Shown here piece by piece: positions 13,098 to 30,539 of a stretch of DNA of 64,000 nt. The stretch comes from a virus. The DNA lies in IMG/VR virus record IMGVR_UViG_3300020420_001038, positions 1 through 64,000 of that record, one strand, 5' to 3'. The notes under the pieces were generated by a model. That model searched no databases. It saw only the letters and a list, made by a program, of their open reading frames with translations, and was not told the DNA's origin. Made by a program: the position numbers and the translations under genes. Position 1 is the first letter of the stretch. Each line of letters opens with the position of its first letter.

Positions 13098-13966
13098 TTT
13101 AGATATTTTTCCTCTATTCTTTTTTTGATTCTTTTCCATGGTATACCCTGTCTAATCTCGTCCTCGAACCATTCTGTATATGCAAGTTGGTTTGCCCATT
13201 TTTGTCTTGCTGGCATGGCAGGTGTGTTTATATCGCTTAAACTTATATTTCCAACATCGTGGCATAAACTATCCTCCGATACAAACACAGGTATTCCGTG
13301 GATTACTGCCTCCATGGCAGGATTAGAACTATGATTTACAACTGCCCATGTTCTTTCCAATGTTGCTTTAAAATCAGTATCATCGTAAGTTGTAAAATCT
13401 CTTTTTGGTTGCCTCACCTTAACATTTGTGAATTTATTGTTTGGAAACCCTATGTTATTCCTAGGATGTGGTCTGACTAAAATAGGTCTAGTTGTATATT
13501 TCCTGATTTCCATTATTTGTTGTTCAATCCATTGCTCCATCTTTGGCAAACCTTTCCATTGTTCAGATGAGTCATGCTGACCACATATGACAATTATTTC
13601 TCCTGTGCTATTCCAATTTTTTAAGGTATGATTAAACAAAGGCCATCTTTTATCATCAAAATTTTGGTTGGCAAAATCGGCACGCCTGTTTATTCCGTTT
13701 ATTCCTATTTTGAAACTTTTGTTTCTACGCAGGCCGCCCACTTCTAAGACTACAACTGGTTTGTTTTGATTCCTGTACTCGTTATATATTGTTCTATATC
13801 TTTCCATTCTGCCACGCCATAGCACAGACCATATCACAGCCACATCTGCGTTTGCTCTCGTGTTAACAAAAACTTCCTCTCCATTGTCTCTTAAACTTTG
13901 TATAAACGCTTCAAATATTGGTTTGGAATTGATAGGTCCATGTTCGGGCCATACTTCTATTCTCAT
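13094..13966 (-). CDS. KpsS/KpsC-like capsule biosynthesis glycosyltransferase (paralog 1)
   Basis: GQHD, VRPHP, NHSSNPAMEAVIHGIPV and LAYTEW motifs. Confidence 0.65.
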   Translation of the reverse strand: MRIEVWPEHGPINSKPIFEAFIQSLRDNGEEVFVNTRANADVAVIWSVLWRGRMERYRTIYNEYRNQNKPVVVLEVGGLRRNKSFKIGINGINRRADFANQNFDDKRWPLFNHTLKNWNSTGEIIVICGQHDSSEQWKGLPKMEQWIEQQIMEIRKYTTRPILVRPHPRNNIGFPNNKFTNVKVRQPKRDFTTYDDTDFKATLERTWAVVNHSSNPAMEAVIHGIPVFVSEDSLCHDVGNISLSDINTPAMPARQKWANQLAYTEWFEDEIRQGIPWKRIKKRIEEKYLK

Positions 13967-14862: not shown

Positions 14863-14874
14863 AATCCTATTTAA

Positions 14875-16635
14875 TTAAAAATACATTTGGTATTTTTTTA
14901 TCCAATCGTTTACTATCCATGCAGGAATTAATGCCTTGCCTGCTTTTTGACTTGCTTTAATTACATCCAATTTACTTTGATCTTTCATGGATTCATTATA
15001 AAACTTTTTTAATTTTTCACTCATATTGGTTGTCAGCCAATGCCCAACTGGTACGGTCCATCCTGTTTTACCTTTGTTGATGATTTCGTTTGGCAATAGT
15101 CCTTGGTATGATTGTTTTGTTAATATCTTTGTGTTACTTTTATCTATACCCATTTTAATTTCGCTATGCATACCCATACAGTATTTCATAAATGTTTTGG
15201 ATGCCAACGGAAATCTACCTTCCATACCGTACGCCATTCCATACTTGTCATTCCTATTAAACATCTCTTCAGGTACCTGGGCCACACAATCTAGCGCCAT
15301 ATATGATCCAACGGGATCATTTGGGTTCCAAAGGTCTCCAGAATAACACTTTTTAAATTCTTCAAGTAAAATATTTTCATTCAGCGGATTATCTGTTAAT
15401 TGTAAAGGCCTTTTTATTCTTTTGAGCCACAATTTTAAAATATCATCCCATGTTGTTAATTTGTCTTTTCCTATTTGTTTTCTTAACCATTCAGGATTTT
15501 TCATTTTCCAGTATTTTGGATATCCTGCTAGAACCTCATCACCCATATCTCCGGCCATTGTGACTACAATATCTTTGGATGATAGAAACTTGTTAGTGTA
15601 GCAATACATGGCCATACTAGGATTGTAAACAGGTTGTTCCATATAATAAATCGAGTCTTGCCATGATTCTATAAAATTTTCGGGTGTAATAGGAACTTCT
15701 GTATGATTGAACTTATTCTGATTTGCAAGGATACTGGCACAGACGGCATCTTCGTTATAGTCCTCATCTGCTTTTACATTTGGATACATCTTATTTGTAA
15801 AGGAGTTTACCTCGCCTTTCACTTTATTAAGTTCATACGCAACTAAACTCGAATCCAATCCACCGCTTAAAAATACTCCAATTTTTCTTCTACCAATACT
15901 ACACATCTTAACTGCTTCGTGAGATATGGATCTAAATTCGTCTGCATTAAACGTGTTCTGACTTACAGGTTTTATATGTTGTCTGTATATTCTTTTTATT
16001 TTTTTATTTGCGACATCGTATACAACAGTTTCGCCTGCTAGTAATTTTTTTATGCCACTAAAAAATGTATTTCTTAAAGCATTGATTCCTGTCTTTCCCA
16101 TAAAACTTACAGCCAGTGGATCAATCTTCCTTGCGTTTGGAACTTTATCTATCATGCCTTTTATCTCAGATCCAAACACCAGTCCTTCTTTTATTTCCGC
16201 ATAGAATAATGGTTTGATACCAGCGTGATCACGTGATATCCAAAGTTCTTGTTCTTTTATTTTGTAATACGCAAAACCATGCATTGAATCAATTTCATCT
16301 AAAAATTTTAAACCAAAAGTGTCTAACCCCCAAGCAAGTAAGTCGGTATCGGTACCTGTAAGTCCAGCAAATCCTTTGCCCTTATACTTTTGTTTTAATT
16401 CGTAGTAGTTGAATATTTCACCATTGTATACCAAAATATTTCCGTCTGGGGTCTTCCATGGTTGTATTGATATTTTTGGATCACTCATGATCGAAAGCAA
16501 ATTATGACCTAGGGTGATTTTGCTATCAGGATCCCACCAAACCTTTTCTCCATCCGGTCCTCTATGTTTACATGTTTGTATGTATTGGTGTATGAATTCA
16601 GGATTTTTTTCAGTGATTCCGTATATTCCACACAT
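14875..16635 (-). CDS. asnB: Asparagine synthase (glutamine-hydrolysing) family amidotransferase
   Basis: N-terminal MCGI, HRGPD, YNGEIFN, RDHAGIKPLFY, LSGGLDSS and GDMGDE motifs. Confidence 0.9.
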   Translation of the reverse strand: MCGIYGITEKNPEFIHQYIQTCKHRGPDGEKVWWDPDSKITLGHNLLSIMSDPKISIQPWKTPDGNILVYNGEIFNYYELKQKYKGKGFAGLTGTDTDLLAWGLDTFGLKFLDEIDSMHGFAYYKIKEQELWISRDHAGIKPLFYAEIKEGLVFGSEIKGMIDKVPNARKIDPLAVSFMGKTGINALRNTFFSGIKKLLAGETVVYDVANKKIKRIYRQHIKPVSQNTFNADEFRSISHEAVKMCSIGRRKIGVFLSGGLDSSLVAYELNKVKGEVNSFTNKMYPNVKADEDYNEDAVCASILANQNKFNHTEVPITPENFIESWQDSIYYMEQPVYNPSMAMYCYTNKFLSSKDIVVTMAGDMGDEVLAGYPKYWKMKNPEWLRKQIGKDKLTTWDDILKLWLKRIKRPLQLTDNPLNENILLEEFKKCYSGDLWNPNDPVGSYMALDCVAQVPEEMFNRNDKYGMAYGMEGRFPLASKTFMKYCMGMHSEIKMGIDKSNTKILTKQSYQGLLPNEIINKGKTGWTVPVGHWLTTNMSEKLKKFYNESMKDQSKLDVIKASQKAGKALIPAWIVNDWIKKYQMYF

Positions 16636-17618
16636 TATAAGCCAAGCCTCTCTTTAAATCTTTTGAATACTGTACCATCACGTATTTCTTCTTCGGTCCA
16701 TTGTTTGTATCCTATATCATATACCCATTGGTCTCTATTGGGATATTTTGGATTTTCTATGTCGTCTAATTTTGTATTTGCTACTGGCCAACAAATTGCA
16801 AGATCTGAGGTAACAAAGGTAGGGATTCCACGAACGCAGGAATCGATACTGGCAGTAGAGTTGTGAGTAATAACAGCATGACAATTAGTTATGGCTTCTT
16901 GAAAGTTAAATCTATAGTACTTTTTTTCATCACCTGAAAAAAATTTTTGTCCTATTATAACCTTGCAATCTTCGGGAAATTCTTTAACACGTTCTTCTAT
17001 GTGTGCCATGTGGTTAGGATGAGGTCTGATTAAAAATTGCCTTTTAGTCAATGGTCTAATTTTATCATACACACTTCTAAACCACTCAATAGGATCAAGT
17101 TCATTCATACTCCAATTATCTTTTGGTTGCAAAACAAATAATATAGGATCATCTTGATTACTTTTTCTCCATGGTTCATACTTTATATTCCATGTTTTTT
17201 TCATCATCTCCCATCTATCGGGAGGACTGTTATCAGATAAAAAATTTCCGTTGTTCATTGGAGAATACAAACTTACACGCCAATGGTGTTTTGGATGAGT
17301 GATTGTGTTTCCAAAACTAGATAGGATGCCACCATCGAAAGTTATAATGTATATTCCTTTTTTCTTTGCTCTCTCAACAAGGTCTCTGCGTCTTCCTTTG
17401 GTGTGATGCATTTGATTTGTACCACCATATCCAAACATACAACCAATTTTTGCAGTTGGTTCCATTTCATTCGCAGTCCAGTCGCCGGTCTTATTTTCAT
17501 TCACCATTATTGGATTATCTCCACAAGCACGTATTCCTTCTGCCATGTGTTGTAGAAGTTCCCAACTAGCACCACGTCTACGGTCTTTAACTGTCCGTCT
17601 AAAGATTTCAACGTCCAT
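16635..17618 (-). CDS. KpsS/KpsC-like glycosyltransferase (paralog 2)
   Basis: LQPKD, IRPHP, THNSTASIDSCVRGIP and IGYKQWTEEE motifs. Confidence 0.65.
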   Translation of the reverse strand: MDVEIFRRTVKDRRRGASWELLQHMAEGIRACGDNPIMVNENKTGDWTANEMEPTAKIGCMFGYGGTNQMHHTKGRRRDLVERAKKKGIYIITFDGGILSSFGNTITHPKHHWRVSLYSPMNNGNFLSDNSPPDRWEMMKKTWNIKYEPWRKSNQDDPILFVLQPKDNWSMNELDPIEWFRSVYDKIRPLTKRQFLIRPHPNHMAHIEERVKEFPEDCKVIIGQKFFSGDEKKYYRFNFQEAITNCHAVITHNSTASIDSCVRGIPTFVTSDLAICWPVANTKLDDIENPKYPNRDQWVYDIGYKQWTEEEIRDGTVFKRFKERLGL

Positions 17619-18423
17619 CTAATATCTCCATTGCATAACCATTCCTAAATTCTTCTTGTGTAAACTGTCCGTATGCCAAACTATAAAAAATAGGTTCTCT
17701 GTCTTGGTACATAGGAGTCTCAATCTTTGTAAAGTCGGATTCACAAATTGGACCACAAGGATTTTCAAAATTACTGAAACACGGTACACCGTTGTGTAAT
17801 GCTTTTATTGTGATTGAACTATTAAATGTTACTACTGCATGAACCTGATCCCATTCGAATGGCTTATCTGGTTGTTTGTTTTCGCTAGGTCCTGGTTGCA
17901 TTCTGCCTACTTCGTCGATAAAACTTTTTGGATTATAAGGTTTTTCTCTAACAATAATTTGTCTATCACTGTTTGCTTTAAGTATTTTTAATGTTTCTGC
18001 GAGCCAATCTTGTGCATCAAAGTGTAATGCCATGCTATGACTTGGTGGCACAACTAAAATATATTTTCCGTCCTTATGATAAGGTTGAATTGCATCACCT
18101 CGATAATATTTTTTGTACCTGTCGTCAGGTCTGTCCTCGATAAATGTTTTGACGTGTTGGTTTTTGACACATCTCATCCAATAAGGTGTACCTCTACTGT
18201 CACCCCAGTAAGGTCTATCAATATAATAAAAGTCTTTTTTATTTTTTTTTGCCCAGTGATAAACCAAATTAGTGCCTCGTAGGACGCCCATGAATGTTAC
18301 TTTTTTACAATCATTTGAATTCAGAACATCTTGGTAAGATACTATTTTACCATTCATTCCCCTGCTCATTGCTTCTATATATTTTTCAGTGTTGGCTCTT
18401 TCTGTTTTTACTGCGTAAAACAT
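17608..18423 (-). CDS. KpsS/KpsC-like glycosyltransferase (paralog 3)
   Basis: YIDRPYW, LVVPPS, REKP, TFNSSITIKALHNGVP and LAYGQFTQEE motifs. Confidence 0.55.
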   Translation of the reverse strand: MFYAVKTERANTEKYIEAMSRGMNGKIVSYQDVLNSNDCKKVTFMGVLRGTNLVYHWAKKNKKDFYYIDRPYWGDSRGTPYWMRCVKNQHVKTFIEDRPDDRYKKYYRGDAIQPYHKDGKYILVVPPSHSMALHFDAQDWLAETLKILKANSDRQIIVREKPYNPKSFIDEVGRMQPGPSENKQPDKPFEWDQVHAVVTFNSSITIKALHNGVPCFSNFENPCGPICESDFTKIETPMYQDREPIFYSLAYGQFTQEEFRNGYAMEILDGR

Positions 18424-18442
18424 AATATTATTGTAAATGATT

Positions 18443-19528
18443 TTAGTCTAAAAGTCTAATTAATTGCGGCACATCGACTTTCAGATCAACCATGTCTTTT
18501 CCTTTTTTATTTCTTGGTTTCTTCTGATTTAACTTAATACTATCTGTAAGCACCACAGTATGTTCTAGATCTAGATGTTTTGATAATACTGGATAAACTT
18601 TTTTACCAATAAAATCCTTATGTTGTAATTCAAATATTTTAGTTTTGGGTTGGCACCAAATCGTGTTTACTAATCCTGCACCATGCGGCGCCAATACATG
18701 TGATGCTTCTTTGAAAATTTGAATCTGTTCTTTGAGGCTCATTCCTTCTAATGTTACTGTTTCCCAACCTTTCAAGGCCATTAGCAACTGGTCTTGGTTT
18801 GATATGTTCCTGTTGCCTGCATCTTGTCTAGTAAGGAAAATTTTCCTACTTTGTTTTGGTGTTTCCCGCACTAATACATTTCCGAGGCCTCTCAACCAAA
18901 GAGGCATATGAGGAGTAATTATTCCGTCCTCATAATTCGACATCGATGGGACAACCATATGATAAAATCTCCAAGTTTCATTCTTTGGCATAACGTAATA
19001 TCTAAGTTCTGGAAACAATTCTTTAGCGACCTTTTCAAAATAGTTGCTTGGGTTGGATAAGATATAAACATATTTTGTAAAATCTGTGGCCCACCTTTTT
19101 TCCAATAATCTAAATTTAGATATCACATCGATCCATATATGCCACGGATTTTCTGCACTATACTCATCAATTGGCAACCAAACATAAGTCCAAGTAGCAT
19201 CTTGAAACTGTTTGGTTATTGGTGGCATCTCAATATCAACTTTATCTTCCCATTTACTAAAAAATTTATGTACCTTCTGTGGTTTATTTCTATATTTTGA
19301 TATAAGGGGCCATAAATGATGTGTGAGCATCTTACGATCCTCAGTAATCAAAACAGGTAAAGTTGACACAGAACAATTATGGAAATCTGCTACAAAAGTA
19401 GGCATACTGGTAAATTTCATTTCCATCTTCATATTTGCCCACTTCAAATAATAATCATAGGACTCGTCAATTATGTCAAATTGATGTAGGAAATATTTTA
19501 TGTCAGAAATGTTTTCAACCGTTTGCAT
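18443..19528 (-). CDS. GT61 (DUF563) glycosyltransferase
   Basis: NPWH, IFLTR...RNISN, SLKEQIQIF and APHGAGLVN motifs. Confidence 0.8.
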   Translation of the reverse strand: MQTVENISDIKYFLHQFDIIDESYDYYLKWANMKMEMKFTSMPTFVADFHNCSVSTLPVLITEDRKMLTHHLWPLISKYRNKPQKVHKFFSKWEDKVDIEMPPITKQFQDATWTYVWLPIDEYSAENPWHIWIDVISKFRLLEKRWATDFTKYVYILSNPSNYFEKVAKELFPELRYYVMPKNETWRFYHMVVPSMSNYEDGIITPHMPLWLRGLGNVLVRETPKQSRKIFLTRQDAGNRNISNQDQLLMALKGWETVTLEGMSLKEQIQIFKEASHVLAPHGAGLVNTIWCQPKTKIFELQHKDFIGKKVYPVLSKHLDLEHTVVLTDSIKLNQKKPRNKKGKDMVDLKVDVPQLIRLLD

Positions 19529-19557
19529 ATTCTAGATAATTATACTATAATTATTGT

Positions 19558-20250
19558 ATGATACCCAACAGAATGTTCATAAACGGTTGCTCTTTCCTTA
19601 CCACTAGGCCACGGAGAGGTGTCCATACCCATACAGGGCAAGAACTTGCTAAATTAATGAATCTTGAGGTCGCCTGTCAAATGGCAAATGGCGGTAGGGG
19701 ACATAAAAGGTTATACTGGACAACAAGGGCATGGTGTGAAAAATTTGTGACCTTGGCACAAGAATCCTTTTTCTTAATTGGATCAAGCGGTGGTAATAGA
19801 TTTGACTTTCCAACCAGTGATGGATATAAACAACATAAATTTCCTGACATGACTACAACATGGAAAACCTGGGATCCAAATAGAGATGAAGAAACAATTA
19901 AATTTACAAGATACCTTTTTAAAAGTGGATGTGATATTAATCAACTTATACAAATAGAGGCAATAAGCCATTTATTAGCCTTGCAGGACTTTTTTAAAAT
20001 TAAAAAATATCCTTATGTGTTCTACAATACTTTATCTAAACCTGTAATTGATAATGAGGATATACAAATGATGTGGGACAAAATAGATAAAAATAATTTT
20101 TTTAAACCTGAGACTAGCCATTTAGACTATACTGTAAAAAATAATCAATATTGTGCAGAAGGTGATCCCCATCCAAACACAGAAGGACACATACAATGGG
20201 CGAATCAACTAAAGGATTTTATAGATGATCACAATTTATGCCCCCGTTAA
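19558..20250 (+). CDS. SGNH/GDSL-like hydrolase or acyltransferase
   Basis: INGCSF near the N-terminus, GxG, and DPHPNTEGH near the C-terminus. Confidence 0.65.
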   Translation: MIPNRMFINGCSFLTTRPRRGVHTHTGQELAKLMNLEVACQMANGGRGHKRLYWTTRAWCEKFVTLAQESFFLIGSSGGNRFDFPTSDGYKQHKFPDMTTTWKTWDPNRDEETIKFTRYLFKSGCDINQLIQIEAISHLLALQDFFKIKKYPYVFYNTLSKPVIDNEDIQMMWDKIDKNNFFKPETSHLDYTVKNNQYCAEGDPHPNTEGHIQWANQLKDFIDDHNLCPR

Positions 20251-21037
20251 TAATTTGAACAGCAAGGCATGGGAGGTGTTTAACGGTGTACAAAAATCGT
20301 GGCCTGAGCAAGTTCAAATCAAAAACAATTCGTTAGAAACAGATCCTTTACCAAACTCAATGTTCTGGGGATTCGTTGGAAACAACAGAGAAATGGTAAA
20401 AAAGTTAGAAGCACGTAAGCAGTCTTTTTGGTACACTGACACACCTTACTTTGGTAGATTTGATAATAGTAATCTTCAAAAGGATAACCATTACTGGAGA
20501 ATATGTAAAAATAGTATTCACGTGAGATACATTCCTGGCTGTAAAACTGATCGATTTGATAAATTTAACATTAAATTAAAAGCACCTGACCTTAAAGGAG
20601 ATTATATTTTAGTATGCCCTAGCAGTGCAGGTATAAACGAATATCTCGATAGACCAAACTGGACTAAGGAAACTGTAGAGCAAATAAAAAGATATACAGA
20701 TAGACCAATTAAAATAAGGAATAAACCCAGAGGCAAAGGAACATCGGGTCCATCAGTTGCAAAAGTGCCAATAGAGGAAGATTTGAAAGACGCATGGTGT
20801 TGTGTGACAAGTTGTAGTATCAGTGCTATAGAGTCTGTCTGTAACGGAAAGCCTGTGTTTTGTGACGAGAAAAGTTTTGCAACACACATTGGAAACACAA
20901 ACCTTGCCGACATCGAAAACCCTATGTTTGTTAGTCCCGAGGATTGGTTATATAGTTTGGCATATCAGCAATTTACACCAGAAGAAATTGAAAATGGACA
21001 CGCAGTGGAAATTTTATTTGACAAGGGAATTTTGTAA
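20225..21037 (+). CDS. KpsS/KpsC-like glycosyltransferase (paralog 4)
   Basis: YTDTPYF, LVCPSS, RNKP, TSCSISAIESVCNGKP and LAYQQFTPEE; closest to paralog 3. Confidence 0.55.
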   Translation: MITIYAPVNNLNSKAWEVFNGVQKSWPEQVQIKNNSLETDPLPNSMFWGFVGNNREMVKKLEARKQSFWYTDTPYFGRFDNSNLQKDNHYWRICKNSIHVRYIPGCKTDRFDKFNIKLKAPDLKGDYILVCPSSAGINEYLDRPNWTKETVEQIKRYTDRPIKIRNKPRGKGTSGPSVAKVPIEEDLKDAWCCVTSCSISAIESVCNGKPVFCDEKSFATHIGNTNLADIENPMFVSPEDWLYSLAYQQFTPEEIENGHAVEILFDKGIL

Positions 21038-21564
21038 TGCAAAAAATAAACGAAATTTGGTTGCCAGACGAGGATGTACAAATATCGACAGACGGATTAA
21101 AACAATGGATAAAATTTTGCAAATATCAATATAAAAAATTTCAACAAGTGTTAGATTGTAATTCTGAATACGGTATATGGAGCAGAAGTATGAGATTGTA
21201 TGCGAAAGAAATTTTTGCCTTTGAACATAGGAAAAGTTTTGCCAAGTTTAGTGAAAAAAATTTAGTGCCGTACAATAATGTAAAATACAATGACCAACAA
21301 ATTGCAGATATAACTTCTCCTCCAAAAACTTTCAATATCGATTATTTTAACTACACTAATTTAGATTTAATTAAAATAAATTCAAACAATGTAATTACTA
21401 CGTTTAGTGGTGCACCTAAAACTTTAGGTAAAAATGATGAGAATCAGTCTAACGTAAAATTTTTATATATAGAAAATATCACTAATGATGTTGATGCTTT
21501 TATTAATAGTTTAAAATATAAATGTATTTTAGATAATTTACCAGATAGGGTATACTATAAATGA
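21037..21564 (+). CDS. Degenerate FkbM-like methyltransferase
   Basis: VLDCNSEYGIW, IFAFE and LDLIKIN follow the FkbM layout, but the glycine-rich SAM motif is eroded. Confidence 0.5.
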   Translation: MQKINEIWLPDEDVQISTDGLKQWIKFCKYQYKKFQQVLDCNSEYGIWSRSMRLYAKEIFAFEHRKSFAKFSEKNLVPYNNVKYNDQQIADITSPPKTFNIDYFNYTNLDLIKINSNNVITTFSGAPKTLGKNDENQSNVKFLYIENITNDVDAFINSLKYKCILDNLPDRVYYK

Positions 21565-22256
21565 AACCATTAGTAGTACAATTTTTTGTTCCTGCAAACA
21601 AATATAAAGATCCAACGTATAATCAAATAGGAGTAAATGATGAACTTTTTGCGTATTCCGTGACCTCGGTTAAAAAATATTGTGAGAAGTATAAGATAGA
21701 TTACAAATTAATTACAGAACCTACAATCAATCATGTTCATCCTACCTTTGAACGTTTTGATTTATTTTTCAATAATGAATGGTGGAAAGATTATACTCAT
21801 ATTCTTTATTTAGACACAGATGTAATTGTATGGGAAAGATCACCAAATGTGTTTGAAAAATATCCAGGAGATGATTCTTTCAAACCTGTGCAGGATAGGA
21901 TTGCACTTAAGAATAGTTTGAAATATCATACAGATAGAAAAAAAGACACTTGTCTTGAAAAGTTTGATGCAGAAGTTCTTCAAAAATCTAGATTCAATGC
22001 AGGAGTTTTTATGTTGACAAAAAAAGCAGTTGAAAGAATGTCACCATATTTGGATTATAAAAATTTACAAGGTGATGATAACGAAATGCTTATATATGCT
22101 ATGTTGGCATCAAAAGTAAAAGTTGAACAGTTAGACTGGCGATATAATAAAAAAAATAGTGTTAGTTGCTATTTTGGTCATGCAAGTGGCTACGAAAAAT
22201 TTAAGCCTAATTATAATATGTTAGCAGTAGCCAAAGAAACATTTACATTATCTTAA
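21561..22256 (+). CDS. GT-A glycosyltransferase (GT8/GT34-like)
   Basis: ILYLDTD, FNAGVF, WRYN and FGHASG motifs. Confidence 0.72.
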   Translation: MKPLVVQFFVPANKYKDPTYNQIGVNDELFAYSVTSVKKYCEKYKIDYKLITEPTINHVHPTFERFDLFFNNEWWKDYTHILYLDTDVIVWERSPNVFEKYPGDDSFKPVQDRIALKNSLKYHTDRKKDTCLEKFDAEVLQKSRFNAGVFMLTKKAVERMSPYLDYKNLQGDDNEMLIYAMLASKVKVEQLDWRYNKKNSVSCYFGHASGYEKFKPNYNMLAVAKETFTLS

Positions 22257-22853
22257 AAAACATTTATCTCTATATTTCATTAAAAAAATATTAAATGTAA
22301 TTCTGTTTGTGTCTTGATTGCTTTCATAGGAATGCCATGTCTTTCCTTGCTTACCACAAAAAATAAAACTAGTATTGGCTTTCCATTCTGCTTCTTTAAT
22401 GAATGCATCTGCTTTTTGTGCCTTATACATTTTTGTACCAACGTTTATATCGGGAGACACGTATGTCACAGAACTCCAAATTTTTTCAAGTCCTTCTTGA
22501 TGTATGTAAAATTTGTAGGGTAACGGTGGACAGATGGATATGTGACAGTTGGCTCCTATTGTGCTATAATCTCTATGCTCCGGATACAAACCACAAATTT
22601 TTTTATAGTTGTCTATAAGATTTCGACATATATCCTTTGCTTCGTCAAAGAAGTCTATATCCCAATCTTTGAATTGCCCTGGAAATATTTGTATCAAGTC
22701 CTTTGTTTCCAGTGTGAGGTACTTCTTGCATTGTGCTTCTAGTTTAATAAAAGTTTCTTCGGATAATGTGTTGTCAATAATTTGGTGTGGCCATGGATTA
22801 AGGTTTACAGGTGTATCTAAACACTTATCTAAAAAATTTTGTCCTTCGGTCAT
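22248..22853 (-). CDS. 2OG-Fe(II) oxygenase-like protein
   Basis: PWPH N-terminus, IHQE...TWHSY...RIT; layout parallels ORF 496-1227. Confidence 0.65.
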   Translation of the reverse strand: MTEGQNFLDKCLDTPVNLNPWPHQIIDNTLSEETFIKLEAQCKKYLTLETKDLIQIFPGQFKDWDIDFFDEAKDICRNLIDNYKKICGLYPEHRDYSTIGANCHISICPPLPYKFYIHQEGLEKIWSSVTYVSPDINVGTKMYKAQKADAFIKEAEWKANTSFIFCGKQGKTWHSYESNQDTNRITFNIFLMKYRDKCFLR

Positions 22854-23229
22854 TTGATATATTTAATATTATTTTGTAATCATCCAAATTAATATCAAAC
22901 TGAACTACTGGTCTTTTGTAAATTTTTCTATCTCTAATATAAATCGTCTTGTCGTTATTATCAAAAAGGATTAAATTATTTGGAGCATATTCTACGGATT
23001 TGCCACTTATTAAAATATCCTTGTTTATTTTATTGTCAGAACGTTCCTTAAAAAACCATAGGCAAATGACAGGTTTTGAATAATCTGCCTGTTCGACATC
23101 TTTAAAAAATTTATATTTGAACCTAATTTTATTTTTAAAATTTTGCCATGTAGTATGGGATAGATTGTTTTGATTTTCATATAACTTATTGTATTCCTCG
23201 TCCTTATAAAAATTTTTAATATATATCAT
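22825..23229 (-). CDS. Hypothetical protein (paralog of 23229-23717)
   Basis: YNKLYENQNNL, ICLWFFKER and RPVVQFD shared with the neighbouring ORF. Confidence 0.6.
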   Translation of the reverse strand: MIYIKNFYKDEEYNKLYENQNNLSHTTWQNFKNKIRFKYKFFKDVEQADYSKPVICLWFFKERSDNKINKDILISGKSVEYAPNNLILFDNNDKTIYIRDRKIYKRPVVQFDINLDDYKIILNISNDRRTKFFR

Positions 23230-23717
23230 TATCCCAAATTCCTCAAAAGCATTTTTTTTATTTTCTTTTTGTAGACAATATCAATAGTTTGTAAATCTAT
23301 CTGTACACAAGGTCTACGTATAACAAATTTATTTTTATTTAATTTTATGTCTTTATTTGTAATTAGCATGGTATTTGTTTGATAACTTACATTGTGTTTA
23401 TTAACTGTAAGATCTACAAAATCTTTGTAGGGATCTATTTTTTTATCTCTACAATACTTGCGATATTCTGCTGTATCAGGACGCTCTCTGAAAAACCAAA
23501 CACACACAACCTGTGTTGTATCTATATCCTCTAAATTATGTAAAAATTTAAACGAACATTTATTGTATTTTTTGAATTCAGTCCAATACTTTCCGTCTAG
23601 ATAATTTTGAAATTCATATAATCTGTTGTAACTTTCGCGTTCGAACACTTCGGGTAAAACTATTACCCCAGTGTGTATGAGATGCTTATCTTCGAGTTTT
23701 TGAAATAGTTTATGCAC
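23229..23717 (-). CDS. Hypothetical protein (paralog of 22825-23229)
   Basis: YNRLYEFQNYL, VCVWFFRER and RPCVQID; GTG start at 23717 next to the upstream stop is preferred. Confidence 0.6.
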   Translation of the reverse strand: MHKLFQKLEDKHLIHTGVIVLPEVFERESYNRLYEFQNYLDGKYWTEFKKYNKCSFKFLHNLEDIDTTQVVCVWFFRERPDTAEYRKYCRDKKIDPYKDFVDLTVNKHNVSYQTNTMLITNKDIKLNKNKFVIRRPCVQIDLQTIDIVYKKKIKKMLLRNLG

Positions 23718-24384
23718 TGAATAAGTTGATAACTTCTTTTTTCCAGTCATCTGCATATTCACATTCTCTATACCCGTCGAACCATGGACCACCTTCGGTG
23801 TAGTGTAATATTTTTGGTTTGCCATCATCTGGTTCTTGGTACCAACCTACTAACCAATTATAATTGTGGGGCAAAGATCCTATCTCAGAGTCATCCAACC
23901 ATGTAAATCTATGCAAGAATTTAGGGGTTTGTTGGTTTAAAAAATCAGGCGTCAATATCTTATTTTTTGGATGTTCGCAGTTCCAAAGTACCATGCTACT
24001 CCAATTTTTTCTTGGATACACAGTTTGTACCTGTCCGTCCATTTTTGTTGTCTCTTTTGGTTTGTAATCGTGTTGCACACAAACAACTGCTTTACTAGGA
24101 TCACAATATTTTTCTAATTCATGACTAGGAATTTTCCATAAAAAATCACAGTCGCAAAAAACTGCCCAGCCTTTGAAGTCGTTAAGATAAGGAACAAAAA
24201 ATCTTGTAAATGTAAATTGTGTCGTTGCGAGTTTGTCAACTTCTCTAGTGTATATGCCCTGTTCACGCATTTCGTTTTGCTTTAAAGGATACACTTCCGC
24301 ATCCGGATCTCTACGCTTAATAGAATGTTCGCAAACTTGATATGCAATATCTTCTCGTGAATCCCAGCCTACATAAATCTTCAT
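23710..24384 (-). CDS. GT-A glycosyltransferase (GT8-like phage family)
   Basis: IYVGWDSRE, FTFTRF, FCDCD, YPRKNWSS and LHYTEGGPW motifs. Confidence 0.8.
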   Translation of the reverse strand: MKIYVGWDSREDIAYQVCEHSIKRRDPDAEVYPLKQNEMREQGIYTREVDKLATTQFTFTRFFVPYLNDFKGWAVFCDCDFLWKIPSHELEKYCDPSKAVVCVQHDYKPKETTKMDGQVQTVYPRKNWSSMVLWNCEHPKNKILTPDFLNQQTPKFLHRFTWLDDSEIGSLPHNYNWLVGWYQEPDDGKPKILHYTEGGPWFDGYRECEYADDWKKEVINLFSA

Positions 24385-24388
24385 AACT

Positions 24389-25081
24389 CTATTTAATTGC
24401 TCTTTTTAGTCTTTCTACATCATCTTGAAAGTACACTTCTTTGCATTTTTTATATGTCCATTCATCTCTTTTAAATACACCTTTACTTCTATTACGCATT
24501 CCTGTTTCATCTTTCATCTTTGTAATTCTTACTGTTATATCTCTTCTATACACAAATCTATCTATTGCTTTCGCTAATTCACCAGTCCATTGATCCACGT
24601 TCCAGTGCCAAAACATAGGTCCCCAAAAATATCCTAGTGCTTTGCGCCATTCTTTAGTAACGACAGGAGTAACGCATTGTTGTTTCTCATACCTATTATC
24701 TCTGCCGCAAAACATGGCCATACAGAAAATACCATCAGGATACTCCATTTTGGTCAAATCCAATTTCAAGTCCCAATCCTGTGTCTCAAATACTACTTCG
24801 TCTCCTGCCAACATATAGTAATCTGCTTCCGTGTTTTCACACATCTCGTTCCAACTAAGGATAGTGTTTTGATCGGGTCCTATTTCGTACTGCACAGATT
24901 TTCCATAAGTTGACTGCAGGTTTGTAAGTATATTTTTGTAAAACTTTAATTGGTTATCATCATCATTAAGATAATATTTTATAATAACATTTGATTTATT
25001 ATTAGCCATATCTAATGCACTTGTCACTAACTTTTCAAGATACTGCGGCCGGCCACGTGTTGGGATTGCTATACAAATCAT
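24389..25081 (-). CDS. GT2-family glycosyltransferase
   Basis: IAIPTRGRP, LAGDE and WNVD motifs. Confidence 0.7.
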   Translation of the reverse strand: MICIAIPTRGRPQYLEKLVTSALDMANNKSNVIIKYYLNDDDNQLKFYKNILTNLQSTYGKSVQYEIGPDQNTILSWNEMCENTEADYYMLAGDEVVFETQDWDLKLDLTKMEYPDGIFCMAMFCGRDNRYEKQQCVTPVVTKEWRKALGYFWGPMFWHWNVDQWTGELAKAIDRFVYRRDITVRITKMKDETGMRNRSKGVFKRDEWTYKKCKEVYFQDDVERLKRAIK

Positions 25082-25764
25082 AGTTGAAGCACTGCCTCTA
25101 TCATGTGTGAAAAGCCTGTTTGCCTTTCTTCGGGGGACATATTTTTGTTTGAATCCTCAAAATGATCTGCAACTGTGTTTACTGATAATGCTTTACGATT
25201 GAATTGTGCGGCCAATGTGTATAACATATAAGTTTCCATTTCGACTGCTAATATACCATATGCTTGGTGATCGTGCCACCATGTTTCACTAGGTTGATAG
25301 AAATAATCATTAGATGTAATGCCACCAACATGGGCCTCGGGGCAAATATCTGAAAACTTTTTAAGTAATTGATAATCTGCACTTGGACTATATTGGAAGC
25401 CAGGGATTAAATTTTTGCCCATCGCACTGTCAGTACTTGCTGTTGTTGCCGCGACAATGTCTCCTACCTTAATGTGTTTTGCTATGCCTCCACAACTGCC
25501 TACTCTTATTATTTTTTGTACATCATAAAATTTAAAGAGTTCTGTAATATAAATTGAGTTACTTGGCATTCCCATACCGCCTGCCTGCACAGATATACGT
25601 TTACCATTGTAAGTGCCTGTAAAGCCTAAACAATTCCTCACACTGTTTACTTGTACAGGATTTTCAAAATAGGTTTCAGCAATCCATTTTGCTCTTAACG
25701 GATCTCCTGGTAGCAATACTGTATCTGCATAATCACCTTTTTTTGCTTCATTGTGTGGCGTCAT
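25078..25764 (-). CDS. deoD: Purine nucleoside phosphorylase
   Basis: MTPH, LLPGDPLRAKWIAE, GMGMPS, IIRVGSCG and AVEME motifs. Confidence 0.93.
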   Translation of the reverse strand: MTPHNEAKKGDYADTVLLPGDPLRAKWIAETYFENPVQVNSVRNCLGFTGTYNGKRISVQAGGMGMPSNSIYITELFKFYDVQKIIRVGSCGGIAKHIKVGDIVAATTASTDSAMGKNLIPGFQYSPSADYQLLKKFSDICPEAHVGGITSNDYFYQPSETWWHDHQAYGILAVEMETYMLYTLAAQFNRKALSVNTVADHFEDSNKNMSPEERQTGFSHMIEAVLQL

Positions 25765-26317
25765 ATAATTCCTTCCAGTTTTTTACCCGCTTGCCATTCC
25801 AACCCTCACGATTGTATGGGTGATCCATCATAAACGTATTAAGGCCAACTTGTTCGCCTTGTATTGCATAATCAACTCGATCTTCGATCCAAATATAATT
25901 TTTACCTTTGTATCTTTCTTCGAGAATTTCTTTTTTTGGTTTTCTAAAATCTCCTGCACAATATATGTAATCAAACACATCGCCAAACAAGTGTTTTAGA
26001 TTGGCTTTACGCAATTGATGTGCATATTTGTCTTTGCCAATCATTGTGATAACCTCAAAACGCCAACCGTCTCTTGCAAATTTACTGACAAACTCCACAC
26101 TATCTTTGTATGCTGGAACAAATCCTAACACACCAGTTTCGTTAAATTTATGCACTAGTTCTAGTGCTTCGGTTTCATCTATGCCGTATCTTTTGGATTG
26201 TTCAAAATATTGATCGGTCTCAGGAAATCTAACGTATCCTTGCTCTTTCATCCAAATGTCAAAAGCAAAACACCAGTCTAGCAGTACGCCATCACAATCA
26301 GTTATTATTTTTTTCAT
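25748..26317 (-). CDS. HAD-family 5'-nucleotidase-like phosphatase (T4 30.2-like)
   Basis: DCDGVLLDW, WIED and HPYN motifs. Confidence 0.78.
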   Translation of the reverse strand: MKKIITDCDGVLLDWCFAFDIWMKEQGYVRFPETDQYFEQSKRYGIDETEALELVHKFNETGVLGFVPAYKDSVEFVSKFARDGWRFEVITMIGKDKYAHQLRKANLKHLFGDVFDYIYCAGDFRKPKKEILEERYKGKNYIWIEDRVDYAIQGEQVGLNTFMMDHPYNREGWNGKRVKNWKELYDATQ

Positions 26318-27035
26318 TGATTAATAATCTTTTTATTTCATCCCAAGTACCTAAGTCTACATAATCTTCAACATCAATTGCTTTAGAATTGTAGATTGGT
26401 GTTGAACAAATTTCTGTGTTTTCGACTGGTTGTTTAAGTGTAGACTTCTCCATAAAGTCCATACAAGATTTAAATGCTCTTCTCCTGAAGGCAAATGCAC
26501 ACCAAAAAGCATTAAATTGTTCTAAGTTTGTATCAGGTTTATCTTGATAATTTTTTATTATCTTATCATCATCTACGTATAATGCACCTTTTGTTTTTAA
26601 CACTTCATGATTAATTTCGTCTTTATATAAAAATGTAAATCCTGTCTCGGTTAATGAGGTTTTTACAAGTTCAAATAAATCTCCTCCATTCCTAAGTTTC
26701 ATTATAGTATCAGGCAGGAGAACTAAATTATATTCACCAAATAAATGACTTGCACTTTTAATTGCACCTGTGTATTCTTCCTCGTTTGGATTTTGATACA
26801 CAAAACTGATGTTGTATCTGTCTTTATATTTTGCTAGGTATGTTATTAATTCTGTTTTGTTTTCGTTTATTACAACTACGAAGTCGACATCTTTACGTCC
26901 ATAGTCTCTGAAAAAATTAAACGAGTAATCTATCAATGCTTCGTCATTATTAATTCTTAATATTTCTTTTGGATATGGTAAATTTAATCTTGTTCCTTTT
27001 CCTGCCGCTGGTAATATTACTGTAAGGTTACTCAT
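26298..27035 (-). CDS. Sugar-1-phosphate nucleotidyltransferase
   Basis: ILPAAGKGTRL..PYPKE, LLPD, DKP and YVDLGTW motifs. Confidence 0.85.
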   Translation of the reverse strand: MSNLTVILPAAGKGTRLNLPYPKEILRINNDEALIDYSFNFFRDYGRKDVDFVVVINENKTELITYLAKYKDRYNISFVYQNPNEEEYTGAIKSASHLFGEYNLVLLPDTIMKLRNGGDLFELVKTSLTETGFTFLYKDEINHEVLKTKGALYVDDDKIIKNYQDKPDTNLEQFNAFWCAFAFRRRAFKSCMDFMEKSTLKQPVENTEICSTPIYNSKAIDVEDYVDLGTWDEIKRLLINEKNNN

Positions 27036-27673
27036 TTTCTTAAAATTTCATGTATTTGTTTCCAATTACTTACTCTGATTACATCAGGATGATTGAAATC
27101 TTTATTGTATTCGTGGTCAATTAATATAGGCTTTAAACCGTATTTAAGGCCTGCTAGTGCGTTTTTTGGCTTGTCCTCGACCCAATATAGTCCGGTTCCA
27201 TGAAATTCTGCTAAAGCACTATCTTTGTCTGATCCTGTATCTAAAATATGATAATTGGTAAAAACATAACTGCCAAATAATTCGCCTAATCTTTTCTTTC
27301 TTAAAAGTTGTGCAGGTATGTCAGAAGTTTGAGATGTGATTGGAATAAAGGTCCAGCCTTCCGCGGCCAGTAACTTCACCCAAGTCTGTGAGTCGGGCAT
27401 AGGACATTGTGTTCCCATCCACGCACTTTTATTGAATTCTCTTATTTCTTTTCTTATTTCTGTTTTGGAAAGACCAAAACGTTCTGCCATTTCGTATGTG
27501 TCTTGTTTGTTGTCTATTAATGTATATGGATAAATTTTCTTTCCTGTGTATCCTTCTCCAACTTCGTTTTCAAAATATGAACGTTGAAGCATCCATTCTG
27601 TAAAATGGTTTTCCCATTCCAGTAATACACCATCTACGTCTGTAAGGATAATTCTATTATTTGATATTGGCAT
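27032..27673 (-). CDS. HAD-family 5'-nucleotidase-like phosphatase (T4 30.2-like)
   Basis: DVDGVLLEW, WVEDK and HEYN; paralog of 25748-26317. Confidence 0.78.
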   Translation of the reverse strand: MPISNNRIILTDVDGVLLEWENHFTEWMLQRSYFENEVGEGYTGKKIYPYTLIDNKQDTYEMAERFGLSKTEIRKEIREFNKSAWMGTQCPMPDSQTWVKLLAAEGWTFIPITSQTSDIPAQLLRKKRLGELFGSYVFTNYHILDTGSDKDSALAEFHGTGLYWVEDKPKNALAGLKYGLKPILIDHEYNKDFNHPDVIRVSNWKQIHEILRK

Positions 27674-28121
27674 CTTCCATTCCCGCTACTCTCAGTTTTA
27701 CAATGTTTGTAATTTGCCATTGCTTCTGATCTAGTCCTTTGGTGATGCCTAACCATTGATTTCTTAATAGAGCAAATTCATTTATTATCTTGTCCATGTC
27801 AACAACGTCCTGTTCGCCATCTACATATTTTTCAGCATCTCTGCTAGATAAGGCTCTGTTATAATTTTCCAAATATTTTTTGAATGCTTTTGATCTTGTC
27901 CTACGCAATTCTATATTTAGATATTCTAATATCGCTTCAATCTGCTGAAGTTGTGCAAATCTTTCTTCTACTATTCCTGGCAACGATGCAGATGCCTTTT
28001 CTAAATTTCCGTAAATTTTTACTTCTTGCTTGGCTTTTTGATATTCTTTTTCGAAATGTAATATGCAGTCTGGGATTTTGTCCAAACTTCTACTTACTTC
28101 ATTATACCAATTAATCTTCAT
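27657..28121 (-). CDS. uvsY: Recombination mediator UvsY-like
   Basis: Helical protein of about 150 aa downstream of uvsX, with the AEKYVDGE...KQWQITNIVKLR pattern. Confidence 0.65.
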   Translation of the reverse strand: MKINWYNEVSRSLDKIPDCILHFEKEYQKAKQEVKIYGNLEKASASLPGIVEERFAQLQQIEAILEYLNIELRRTRSKAFKKYLENYNRALSSRDAEKYVDGEQDVVDMDKIINEFALLRNQWLGITKGLDQKQWQITNIVKLRVAGMEDANIK

Positions 28122-28353
28122 AACGATCGTCGTACTGTTCTTCTTCATCCTCTTGATCTTCGTAGAAAGTGTTGATCGCTTCTTCTAATTTTAGATCAAA
28201 CTCACCACAGGCTTTAATTTCGTCTTCTTCAACACCTATATCTTCAAGTGTTTTTATAAAATCAATTGCCGCATCTGCCTTTTGCTTCTCTGGCATGTAG
28301 TTGGATAAAGAACTCCATAAACGTTCGATGTCTTCGTGTGTCATTTCTGTCAT
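28111..28353 (-). CDS. Acidic hypothetical protein
   Basis: 80-aa ORF coupled between uvsX and uvsY. Confidence 0.65.
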   Translation of the reverse strand: MTEMTHEDIERLWSSLSNYMPEKQKADAAIDFIKTLEDIGVEEDEIKACGEFDLKLEEAINTFYEDQEDEEEQYDDRYED

Positions 28354-29393
28354 TCATTTGCCTCAGATTCTTTTGATAATTTATCAAAATCATCCATAAG
28401 CATGTCTAATTTGGGTCCAACCCAGGCTTTTCTAAATTCAATATGTTCTTTTTTGTCTGGTCCTACGTATTTTAATCTATTTCCTTGCTGTACTAGTATT
28501 CCTTTTTTCTCGAACAGGTCAACTAGTCCACTATAAGGATCCATTCCAGTATCATAAGGAATTTTGACTTGTACACTTTCAAAAGGTTTAGCATATCTTG
28601 TTTTCATCACTTTACAAGCGGCTCTTATACCCCTCACGTCAGATACTTTATTACCCTTTTCATCTTCTTTTAATTTTAACTTTTTCATTGCAACAACGAT
28701 ACTTGATGCATATATAAATCCTTGACCGCCCGATATCTTGTCATCTGGGTCAAACATGTCTTGTGATGCATATGTATGGTTGGTTGCTATCATGCCAACG
28801 TTCCATGAACCAAACATGTTTACACAGTTCCTTACAAGTGCTGTCAGTGCCTTTGGTTTACGACCTAGGTCACCTTTCATCTCACCTGCCTCAAACTGAT
28901 TTACGTCCGTTGGAGTCAACATCATGCCCAACGAGTCAATGACAAAAAGCACCTTTGGTGCACCTTCTTTGTCGTCAGCATGTTGTTCCTTGTACCCTTT
29001 CATGAATTCTGATACTGTTTTTGCTACATCATCGACCATTGATAAACTTAATTTTAGCAGTTTGTCTTCTGATGTGTCCACTTTAAGTGCCTGTAGCCAA
29101 GTTTCATCCAGTGCATTCTCAGTGTCGATCAATATTACAAATATGCCTTGATCCTGTGCATTCTTAATAATGTTGCCTGATGCTATGTAAGATTTACCAG
29201 CACCAGACTCACCGGCAAGTACTGTGACTTTGCCTAAGGGAATACCTTTTTTGAAATCTCCAGTCATCAAATAGTTCAATGCGTAGTTGCCTGTCGATAT
29301 CCAATCTGTTGGATCACTAAATCCAATTCCAAGTCCTTGTATAGACTTTGTTATACTTTTTCTAAATTTTGTTGCGTCAAATACTTTTGTCAT
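28350..29393 (-). CDS. uvsX: RecA-like recombinase UvsX
   Basis: GESGAGKS, IDTENA, VIDSLG, NHTY, SGG and KTR motifs. Confidence 0.92.
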   Translation of the reverse strand: MTKVFDATKFRKSITKSIQGLGIGFSDPTDWISTGNYALNYLMTGDFKKGIPLGKVTVLAGESGAGKSYIASGNIIKNAQDQGIFVILIDTENALDETWLQALKVDTSEDKLLKLSLSMVDDVAKTVSEFMKGYKEQHADDKEGAPKVLFVIDSLGMMLTPTDVNQFEAGEMKGDLGRKPKALTALVRNCVNMFGSWNVGMIATNHTYASQDMFDPDDKISGGQGFIYASSIVVAMKKLKLKEDEKGNKVSDVRGIRAACKVMKTRYAKPFESVQVKIPYDTGMDPYSGLVDLFEKKGILVQQGNRLKYVGPDKKEHIEFRKAWVGPKLDMLMDDFDKLSKESEANE

Positions 29394-29404
29394 AATATCC
29401 TCTT

Positions 29405-29433
29405 ATTATATTACACAAGGCCTCAATAGTCAA
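29405..29433 (-). promoter_or_regulatory. Sigma70-type promoter for uvsX, overlapping an inverted repeat
   Basis: TTGACT-17 bp-TATAAT; CAAGGCCT/AGGCCTTG arms; GAGG SD downstream. Confidence 0.78.
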
Positions 29434-29460
29434 TATCAAGGCCTTGGTAAAGTGTCAATG

Positions 29461-30444
29461 TTATTTTTGTTGTCTTGATCTAATAAGTTTCAAGATATCC
29501 TCTGCCCTTTTGGCACTATCACCTGTTGGTGCCGCTGGTTGAGGTGCTGTTTCTGGTGCTGGTGCAGTTTCTTTTACTTCAGCATTTACCGGATCAGCAG
29601 TACTTTCAACTGGTGCAGGTGTGTCTGCCTTAGGTAACGATTGTTGTGTACCTTGATAGGCCATACCTGCTGGTCTAAAGTATTGTCCATACTTCTCAAG
29701 ATCATACGCCTCACCATCCACAGATTTTTCAAATAATTCTTTAATTATTTTTACTTCTGCTTCAGTTGGTTCTTTTGGTCTGAAGTCATTTAGATTATGT
29801 AATCCAAATTTATCAATTGCACTTCTTTCTGCTTCTTCTAGTGCTCTTTCTCTTCTTGACCATTTTGATGTTGAGTAGTCAGCATATCCACCTTTAGTTG
29901 TCTTATTAATTCTAAAGTCAACACCTCTCACACTGTCAGTTGGCAATTCTTCCATTTCTGGATCAAGTAATGCCGCTCTGATTATGTTAAAGATCTGAGG
30001 TCCAATTATAAATCTTCTGATTGGATTCTCTGGTGTTGTGTCTTCCGCCAACGGATTAGTTACAACAAAACCTTGGAAAATATAACTTTTCTTTTTCCAA
30101 TATTTTCTGCCCATGTCTTCCATGCTCTTGTCTTTGAACCATGGTCTAACTTCCGTTAGTACTGGGCAAGTTTTGCCGTACATCTCCATACAAGGAACTT
30201 GCACAGTAACTGGTCTTGAATCTGTCTGACCTTTGATGCCTGCGAAAGGCAGTTTGATCATGTTTCTCTCAGTCCAGAAAAATGTGTTTGCTGTGTCCTT
30301 GTCTGGTAAAAATCTAACGACTGCTTCGTCGCCTTCTTTTATATTCCAGTGTGGATAAATGGCGTTGTCTCCGCCTGTTGATGAAGTGGAGCGATTCACT
30401 TCTTGAGATTTTAACTTCGCTCTTATTTCAGCCAATGTAGCCAT
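29461..30444 (-). CDS. Single-stranded DNA-binding protein (T4 gp32-like)
   Basis: VRFLP, C...CPV, G.DF.I.K...GGYADYSTSKW; located upstream of uvsX. Confidence 0.88.
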   Translation of the reverse strand: MATLAEIRAKLKSQEVNRSTSSTGGDNAIYPHWNIKEGDEAVVRFLPDKDTANTFFWTERNMIKLPFAGIKGQTDSRPVTVQVPCMEMYGKTCPVLTEVRPWFKDKSMEDMGRKYWKKKSYIFQGFVVTNPLAEDTTPENPIRRFIIGPQIFNIIRAALLDPEMEELPTDSVRGVDFRINKTTKGGYADYSTSKWSRRERALEEAERSAIDKFGLHNLNDFRPKEPTEAEVKIIKELFEKSVDGEAYDLEKYGQYFRPAGMAYQGTQQSLPKADTPAPVESTADPVNAEVKETAPAPETAPQPAAPTGDSAKRAEDILKLIRSRQQK

Positions 30445-30539
30445 AATGTAAGCCTCCTAATTTGCCTATGTTTGTGCCTAAATGTATATTAAGCATTAGT
30501 GCATAATATACAACTATATTTATCTAATGTCTAGTATTA

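Follow-up and report, generated by a model that had tools for sequence, protein, structure and literature searches.

Why should a phage keep a gene for a purine nucleoside phosphorylase (PNP), an enzyme of nucleotide salvage, between genes that look suited to activating and transferring sugars? The question is posed by a run of six genes in a 64,000-nucleotide (nt) stretch of viral DNA (the window), which makes up the first 64 kb of the 86,865-base IMG/VR virus record IMGVR_UViG_3300020420_001038. Six minus-strand open reading frames (ORFs), designated in order HAD1, NT, HAD2, DeoD, GT2 and GTb, fill positions 27673-23710. An earlier note on this DNA had described six co-directional genes, the first five of them overlapping, and all six ORFs were recovered at the same positions, with successive overlaps of 4, 20, 17 and 4 nt from HAD1 through GT2 and a 4-nt gap before GTb. 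The six genes do not form a single unit. Their invariant core consists of NT, HAD2 and DeoD, which are coupled by the 20- and 17-nt overlaps and are inserted into a uvsX–uvsY–HAD1–GTb backbone.

Linkage of NT, HAD2 and DeoD amid changing neighbours

NT (27035-26298; 245 amino acids (aa)) is the first gene of the conserved triad and is predicted to encode a sugar-1-phosphate nucleotidyltransferase. It is followed by HAD2 (26317-25748; 189 aa), a predicted C1-capped HAD phosphatase and putative nucleotidase that is a cassette-specific paralogue of T4 gp30.2-type proteins, and by DeoD (25764-25078; 228 aa), a DeoD-type (hexameric-class) PNP. Scanning IMG/VR with NT as the anchor gave 34 loci, seven of which ended before the HAD2 and DeoD positions, and HAD2 and then DeoD lay directly downstream of NT in all 27 loci reaching far enough. 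Using a DeoD-anchored profile scan, 96 loci were found and 80 were kept. HAD2 was directly upstream of DeoD in 79 of the 80 and NT was upstream of HAD2 in 77; as two loci end before the NT position, HAD2 and NT directly precede DeoD in 77 of the 78 viral loci with enough upstream sequence. The remaining locus, L134, has neither gene. One extra ORF of 210 aa is present between NT and HAD2 in L087 and L089. These counts overstate independence, as the two scans share contigs, several contigs are near-duplicates and all come from fairly close relatives (identities of 55 to 92% for NT and 54 to 80% for DeoD).

The genes to either side of the triad fell into 13 sequence clusters before NT and seven after DeoD. 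Those with family matches included GT8-like, GT11, sulfotransferase, DnaB, Pol III alpha and radical SAM/SPASM genes, and a glycosyltransferase-like gene of varying family flanks the cassette in many loci. GT2 (25081-24389; 230 aa), which encodes a GT2-like glycosyltransferase, is next after DeoD in seven of 80 loci and joins the triad only in the sub-clade of the window. The commonest gene after DeoD in the relatives (280 to 340 aa; e.g., L018:9955-10920, in a cluster of 17 loci) differs from GT2, and the commonest gene before NT (210 to 235 aa; e.g., L018:7294-7998, in a cluster of 24 loci) differs from HAD1; neither has a Pfam or PHROG match.

The outer genes of the run belong to a different neighbourhood. 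HAD1 (27673-27032; 213 aa), a gp30.2-type HAD paralogue, and GTb (24384-23710; 224 aa), a GT8-like putative glycosyltransferase found at a variable distance from the triad, are backbone genes. Among 47 loci, an ortholog of HAD1 lies beside NT only in L002, the closest relative, and the position of GTb varies in other loci. In record G003, from a relative, one unbroken stretch runs through uvsX, an 80-aa ORF, uvsY, HAD1, GTb and the three ORFs after it, with the HAD1 ortholog (82% identical) between uvsY and GTb, and the NT–HAD2–DeoD–GT2 block is located approximately 31 kb away from this HAD1–GTb pair. The run in the window is therefore a four-gene cassette inserted between the backbone genes HAD1 and GTb. 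Independence of deoD from the nucleotidyltransferase gene, which the earlier note had named as evidence against its proposal, was not what was seen, given that HAD2 and NT accompany DeoD in 77 of 78 viral loci. The single chain of six genes that it had drawn contracts to the NT–HAD2–DeoD unit, with HAD1 and GTb lying some 31 kb away from it in G003 and GT2 adjoining it in few loci. What remains is a near-obligate linkage of three genes whose neighbours change.

The backbone upstream of the run (27657-29393, minus strand) holds a uvsY-like gene of 163 aa (27657-28148; phrog_231, UvsY-like, E 7.5e-16), the 80-aa ORF and uvsX (28350-29393), whose product shares 70% identity with the RecA-like recombinase of Sinorhizobium phage Phosso. 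Downstream of GTb on the same strand, a 134-aa and a 199-aa ORF (22825-23828) gave no family in Pfam and PHROG scans; both match the same stretch of L056 and appear, from this, to be paralogues. These two and a 201-aa ORF remain beside GTb in G003.

Predicted products of the three core genes

DeoD scored 289.1 bits against NCBIfam NF004489 (cut-off, 230), 249.1 bits against TIGR00107 over residues 1-227 (cut-off, 232.25) and 106.7 bits against Pfam PNP_UDP_1, and it matched the Bacillus PNP 2ac7 over its full length (E 2.9e-67). Its phosphate-, ribose- and base-site residues are identical to those of 2ac7 at aligned positions, and 14 phage copies of DeoD all share H4, G20, R24, R43, R87, S90, E177, D200 and R214 (window numbering). 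We take the active site of the E. coli enzyme to comprise Arg24, Arg43, Arg87, Ser90, Glu181, Asp204 and Arg217 (E. coli numbering), and H4 of that enzyme presumably contacts the ribose 5′-OH. From its sequence, DeoD can be firmly assigned as an intact DeoD-type PNP. Phosphorylases of the NP-I family release one kind of sugar phosphate only, an alpha-pentose-1-phosphate. In a tblastn search of 50,697 phage records DeoD matched 29, all seemingly host DNA or fragments that lack annotation.

NT passes the threshold of Pfam PF00483 (NTP_transferase) with 28.6 bits (cut-off, 21.2). Across 13 phage homologues its AAGKGTRL, LLPD and DKP motifs vary little or not at all, and G12, G14, R16, L17, D165, K166 and P167 are invariant in all 13. 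A representative-library search with NT identified 466 family members at E ≤ 1e-3. The structure of NT was modelled with AlphaFold 2 (AF2) from an 81-sequence alignment (predicted local distance difference test (pLDDT), 96.9). Foldseek and VIA-align both placed GalU UDP-glucose pyrophosphorylases first, with GalU 5i1f at Z 21.7 (root mean square deviation (rmsd) 2.9, 229 of 245 residues aligned); RmlA, GlmU and ADP-glucose pyrophosphorylase (AGPase) matched at Z 19 to 20. The model spans the full GalU/RmlA fold, including its sugar-binding half, in a single domain. By this model NT is a complete sugar-1-phosphate nucleotidyltransferase, for which neither fold nor profile indicates the sugar or the nucleoside triphosphate. 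A substrate call from sequence profiles of NT matched against Protein Data Bank (PDB) entries was tried and rejected, as a shallow profile reached only the IspD N-terminal motif and a deeper one tied IspD with GalU.

No match to NT was found by tblastn in the 50,697 phage records (E 1e-5), and scans of viral contigs with the distant relatives P0127 and P0124 gave no confirmed loci. Below about 55% identity to NT, gene context was read in four contigs from metagenome-assembled genomes (MAGs). Distant bacterial homologues (27 to 30% identity) sit among GT2 genes, a setting that suits the route proposed below. P0192 (566 aa) carries a radical-SAM and SPASM domain fused N-terminally to an NT-family domain. 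P0118 (401 aa) was considered as a HAD fusion and discarded, because its extra N-terminal part resembles the common upstream ORF and a read-through in gene calling is the probable origin. In each of four contigs of 100 to 144 kb, PF00483 matched the cassette NT only; the same search of the source record missed even the NT of the window and is too insensitive to exclude further nucleotidyltransferases there.

Both HAD proteins match phrog_420 (HAD1, E 1.6e-28; HAD2, E 2.3e-27) and share 34% identity. At E ≤ 0.01, HAD1 had no Pfam match and HAD2 had sub-threshold HAD matches only. The tblastn matches of HAD2 fall under genes annotated "30.2" in RB32 and Acj9, and the T4 gp30.2-type HAD family has a match in 1188 phage records, mostly T4-like and far from any NT. 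Residues D7 and D9 (motif I), K128 (motif III) and D146 (motif IV) of HAD2 are invariant. Its AF2 model (pLDDT 93.9) has a Rossmannoid core with a C1 cap and matches many HADs at Z 15 to 18.5, as expected of a HAD superfamily phosphatase, to which HAD2 can be assigned on the model. The best VIA match was 3bwv, which is deoxyribonucleotidase-like (Z 18.5, rmsd 2.2, 160 aligned), followed by ten entries of mitochondrial and cytosolic 5′(3′)-deoxyribonucleotidases (human mdN/cdN) at Z 16.0 to 16.3. HAD2 thus resembles deoxyribonucleotidases by fold and may work like them without membership in the NT5C family.

The family labels first given to the six products fared unevenly. Those of DeoD and NT were borne out, the label of 5′-nucleotidase-like reduces to the modelled fold of HAD2, and the two glycosyltransferase labels are weaker. 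GT2 matched phrog_14945, annotated as glycosyltransferase (E 1.2e-22), and GTb matched phrog_28018, to which no function is attached (E 8e-57); neither had a Pfam match at E ≤ 0.01. Among look-alike clusters in the ESM-Atlas, PF00535 is carried by 13 to 24% of members for GT2 and PF01501 by 10 to 40% for GTb, figures that serve as leads only.

A possible route from purine nucleotides to an activated pentose

We propose, at a confidence just short of an even balance, that NT–HAD2–DeoD is a cassette of marine T4-type and jumbo phages that leads from nucleoside monophosphates through nucleosides and (deoxy)ribose-1-phosphate to a nucleoside diphosphate (NDP)-pentose for nearby glycosyltransferases. 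HAD2 would remove the phosphate from purine (deoxy)nucleoside monophosphates, DeoD would phosphorolyse the nucleoside to free base and alpha-(deoxy)ribose-1-phosphate, and NT would join this pentose-1-phosphate with a nucleoside triphosphate to give NDP-(deoxy)ribofuranose. The variable glycosyltransferases beside the cassette, GT2 in the window, would then move the pentose to an acceptor. As the product of DeoD belongs to the substrate class of sugar-1-phosphate nucleotidyltransferases and a nucleotidase would supply the nucleoside, this is the simplest route that uses all three constant genes. The substrates, the sequence of the steps, the nucleotide consumed and the acceptor are all inferred.

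A glycan on protein or lipid is the most likely acceptor, a preference that follows from the setting of the cassette at the edge of an island of glycosyltransferase-like genes of roughly 15 kb. The remainder of the island (12345-22256, roughly 10 kb) holds an MptE-like/sialyltransferase-like gene (12345-13139; PF01973 at 19 bits, below the cut-off, and phrog_4603 at E 8e-4), an asparagine-synthase-like gene (14875-16635; PF00733, E 1.1e-45), a GT61 gene (18443-19528; PF04577, E 6.9e-21), a DUF6071-like gene (19558-20250; 20.6 bits, below the cut-off) and a GT8-like gene (21561-22256; PF01501 at 20.1 bits, below the cut-off), together with at least six ORFs without a family. An ORF of 270 aa at 20225-21037, on the plus strand, has no Pfam or PHROG match. 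Two or three diverged paralogues of it (23 to 38% identity) occur in many related loci (L004, L007, L013-L015, L018, L021 and others), usually near GTb, and it may represent a family that is expanding in these islands.

The earlier note had stated that no pathway of this form was described. This does not hold, because the same logic is found in the biosynthesis of A-90289, caprazamycin and muraymycin in Streptomyces, where, in the branch as published, LipP displaces uracil from 5′-amino-5′-deoxyuridine to give the ribose-1-phosphate, LipM forms the NDP-aminoribose (NDP-5-amino-5-deoxyribose) and LipN transfers it (PMC4902027). As in that branch, a phosphorylase would in the cassette provide a pentose-1-phosphate, a nucleotidyltransferase an NDP-pentose and a glycosyltransferase the transfer. 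The Lip type of gene grouping is also seen, with DeoD and NT linked in 77 of 78 loci and a flanking glycosyltransferase of varying family. The Lip route as described differs in starting from UMP, modifying C5′ by means of LipL and LipO and cleaving a uridine derivative (PMC4902027), whereas the cassette has a purine phosphorylase of the DeoD type and belongs to a phage glycan island rather than an antibiotic cluster. Pfam scans of 20 window ORFs gave no match to an oxygenase or aminotransferase family. By analogy the proposed logic is thus not unprecedented, although its phage and purine-DeoD setting differs. From the earlier interpretation, the agreement of linkage and folds with a nucleotidase, a phosphorylase and a sugar-1-phosphate nucleotidyltransferase stands, and the six-gene chain and the novelty of the pathway fall away.

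A phage precedent is the Afh pathway to arabinosyl-5-hydroxycytosine DNA (RB69, DLP3 and HY126), which is described as employing an arabinose-5-phosphate isomerase, AfhE (kinase and nucleotidyltransferase) and AfhF (a HAD phosphatase) (PMC13326640). The two would share, by analogy, a phage route to an NDP-pentofuranose, established for Afh in that report and proposed for the cassette, with a HAD protein and a sugar-1-phosphate nucleotidyltransferase beside glycosyltransferases (PMC13326640). In the published Afh scheme the pentose-1-phosphate is obtained from ribulose-5-phosphate via a 1,5-bisphosphate, a GmhB-like HAD strips the 5-phosphate and the nucleotidyltransferase is fused to a kinase (PMC13326640). 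In the cassette, by contrast, the phosphorylase would yield pentose-1-phosphate directly, HAD2 is capped and NT5C-like by fold, and NT is a single 245-aa domain that is covered by the GalU fold and so is not a bifunctional kinase-nucleotidyltransferase of the AfhE type. Comparison with bacterial purine salvage of the deo type (5′-nucleotidase and DeoD) gave a similar mixture: DeoD is bona fide and an adjacent phosphatase fits the conversion of nucleotide to base, but there is no phosphopentomutase or deoxyriboaldolase partner and the constant neighbour is instead a sugar-1-phosphate nucleotidyltransferase. No description of a phage or cyanophage PNP cassette like NT–HAD2–DeoD was found in the literature searched. 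New here are the insertion of the cassette between backbone genes in the window, the DeoD-anchored linkage in 77 of 78 loci and two departures from the linked arrangement, L134 and L050.

Competing explanations, occurrence and meaning

Several observations weigh against the proposed route to an NDP-pentose. The linked loci are all fairly close relatives (identities of at least 55% for NT and at least 54% for DeoD), so that the linkage is in part due to common descent. The fold of NT does not part pentose from hexose users, with GalU, RmlA, GlmU and AGPase within about 2 Z of each other, and its deeper sequence profile matches PDB entries of the IspD type (8e-9) and the GalU type (1.5e-8) equally. 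For HAD2, GmhB (Z 15.9) and generic HADs (about 15) are just 1 to 3 Z below the best match. Neither HAD1 nor HAD2 has a Pfam NT5C (PF06941) match at E ≤ 0.01, and a HAD profile searched against PDB sequences gave nothing significant; for these two reasons the HADs were not filed as NT5C members. The L134 DeoD (58% identity) has no NT or HAD gene within 5 kb and lies beside dihydrofolate reductase (DHFR), thymidylate synthase (ThyA) and radical-SAM genes; among close relatives, plain salvage is therefore an existing role. Conversely, the L050 NT (63% identity) has no HAD or DeoD within 8 kb. A 1-linked NDP-ribose (UDP- or NDP-) was not found in the literature searched, in which only "GDP-ribose" appeared, in papers on ADP-ribosyl cyclase. 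Finally, bacteria are reported to incorporate ribofuranose into capsules and polysaccharides from phosphoribosyl pyrophosphate (PRPP), as with Cj1432 of C. jejuni (PMC12096443). That route likewise brings ribofuranose into a glycan and involves a phosphatase, but as described it transfers ribose-5-phosphate from PRPP and then dephosphorylates it, with neither a phosphorylase nor an NDP-sugar (PMC12096443).

The two exceptional loci have further features of their own. In L134 (5001-8822) DeoD is followed by DHFR, thymidylate synthase and the radical-SAM gene and is preceded by a weak 2-oxoglutarate (2OG)-oxygenase-like ORF. The NT of L050 (8001-8729) is on a contig of 62 to 78% GC that bears the label of an Acidobacteria MAG. 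A 2657-aa ORF immediately precedes this NT, and a gene for an AbiEii toxin is nearby.

The chief rival explanation, which we consider unlikely, is that DeoD and HAD2 perform ordinary purine salvage, providing bases and ribose phosphate for phage replication, while NT is an ordinary hexose-1-phosphate enzyme (making, e.g., UDP-glucose or GDP-mannose) for the island, and that the three are held together by ancestry and translational coupling. The DHFR–ThyA nucleotide-metabolism block around the DeoD of L134, the solitary NT of L050 and the 1188 phage records with a gp30.2-type HAD, mostly T4-like and far from any NT, all suit this explanation. By fold, NT most resembles hexose enzymes, and as the sole PF00483 match in four 100- to 144-kb contigs it could be the general nucleotidyltransferase of the island. 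The cassette is also often found beside replication or recombination genes (uvsX/uvsY, DnaB and Pol III alpha). However, the flanks turn over (13 upstream and seven downstream clusters) and the block relocates intact, yet the triad is adjacent in 77 of 78 loci, whereas genes that are neighbours by chance should come apart in a hypervariable island. Salvage by itself also leaves unexplained why NT, rather than another glycan gene, is the constant partner.

A second explanation keeps the chemistry of the proposed route and makes phage DNA the acceptor, with a modified base like the arabosylated 5-hydroxycytosine of RB69 and DLP3 or the deoxypentose-cytosine of Shewanella phage Thanatos; we judge this quite improbable. 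Phages are reported to attach pentoses to cytosine derivatives (PMC12838424, PMC13326640), and the donor route for the deoxypentose of Thanatos is described as not known (PMC12838424). In the window the cassette adjoins uvsX/uvsY, and in relatives DnaB or Pol III alpha, and by fold HAD2 comes closest to deoxyribonucleotidases. A thymidylate-synthase-family enzyme is needed for 5-hydroxymethyl and 5-hydroxy pyrimidines, however, and the family (PF00303) was found in none of six records (the source record and those of five relatives), all of which are fragments 13 to 31% complete. The phage records in which NT had no tblastn match should include RB69 and Thanatos, and the surrounding GT61, GT8-like, GT11, sulfotransferase and asparagine-synthase-like genes look like glycan assembly rather than DNA modification.

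Handling of a non-standard nucleoside, with DeoD cleaving 5′-deoxyadenosine (a radical-SAM leftover) or a 5′-modified nucleoside made by the island and NT activating the modified pentose-1-phosphate, is highly improbable, as all 14 phage copies of DeoD keep H4, which in its presumed role would fit ordinary nucleosides, a radical-SAM neighbour was seen in one of about 40 loci inspected for neighbours and no window ORF of more than 150 aa has a radical-SAM CxxxCxxC motif. In its favour are that one neighbour, a radical-SAM/SPASM gene directly after DeoD in L026 (L026:3267-4148), the P0192 fusion, the radical-SAM gene near the lone DeoD of L134 and its closeness to the Lip pathway, which is described as activating a 5-modified ribose (PMC4902027).

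CheckV rated the source record as 24% complete, and its 86,865 bases therefore suggest a genome of roughly 360 kb. The UvsX of the window is 62 to 70% identical to recombinases of jumbo myoviruses such as Sinorhizobium phage Phosso, Agrobacterium phage Atu_ph07 and Cronobacter phage GAP32, and the G+C content of the window DNA is 31 to 42%. Four further cassette-bearing contigs of 100 to 144 kb (G006-G009, the records of L096, L098, L110 and L097, respectively) were rated 45 to 62% complete, corresponding to genomes of approximately 190 to 230 kb; set against the roughly 360 kb of the window phage, this implies that the cassette spans phages of different size classes. A megablast search of positions 22000-30500 against the 50,697 phage records gave no match. 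Several studies have marine or seawater metagenome runs that contain DNA near-identical to 23710-27673. Four metatranscriptome runs held short contigs, 99 to 100% identical, within NT, HAD1 and GTb, one of which spans the GT2/GTb junction; these were not used as evidence of expression because cover was patchy and carry-over of DNA is possible. The T4 late-promoter motif had three matches in the window, fewer than expected by chance and none near the six-gene run, and sigma-70-like and terminator-like sites in the window were at the level of shuffled sequence.

The cassette is widespread in marine phages and computationally coherent, and its function is predicted from sequences and models. The broader proposition, that phages of the ocean turn the purine nucleotides of the host directly into 1-linked NDP-ribofuranose or NDP-2-deoxyribofuranose, which then serves as glycosyl donor, is possible, if on balance somewhat doubtful. 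If true, it would add a sugar nucleotide and a donor-supply route that are unknown in primary metabolism and that many abundant marine phages of the T4 and jumbo types would share, and the pentose could decorate virions, the host envelope or even phage DNA. Given the near-identical DNA in marine metagenomes of several studies, such chemistry could be common in the sea. Should the cassette work as proposed, it would provide an assayable three-enzyme system for pentofuranosyl donors, and it would account for the firm coupling of a sugar-activating enzyme to a salvage enzyme seldom met in cultured phages. The phages would also have a new activated sugar, and viruses a new means of taking building blocks for glycans from the nucleotides freed in host takeover.

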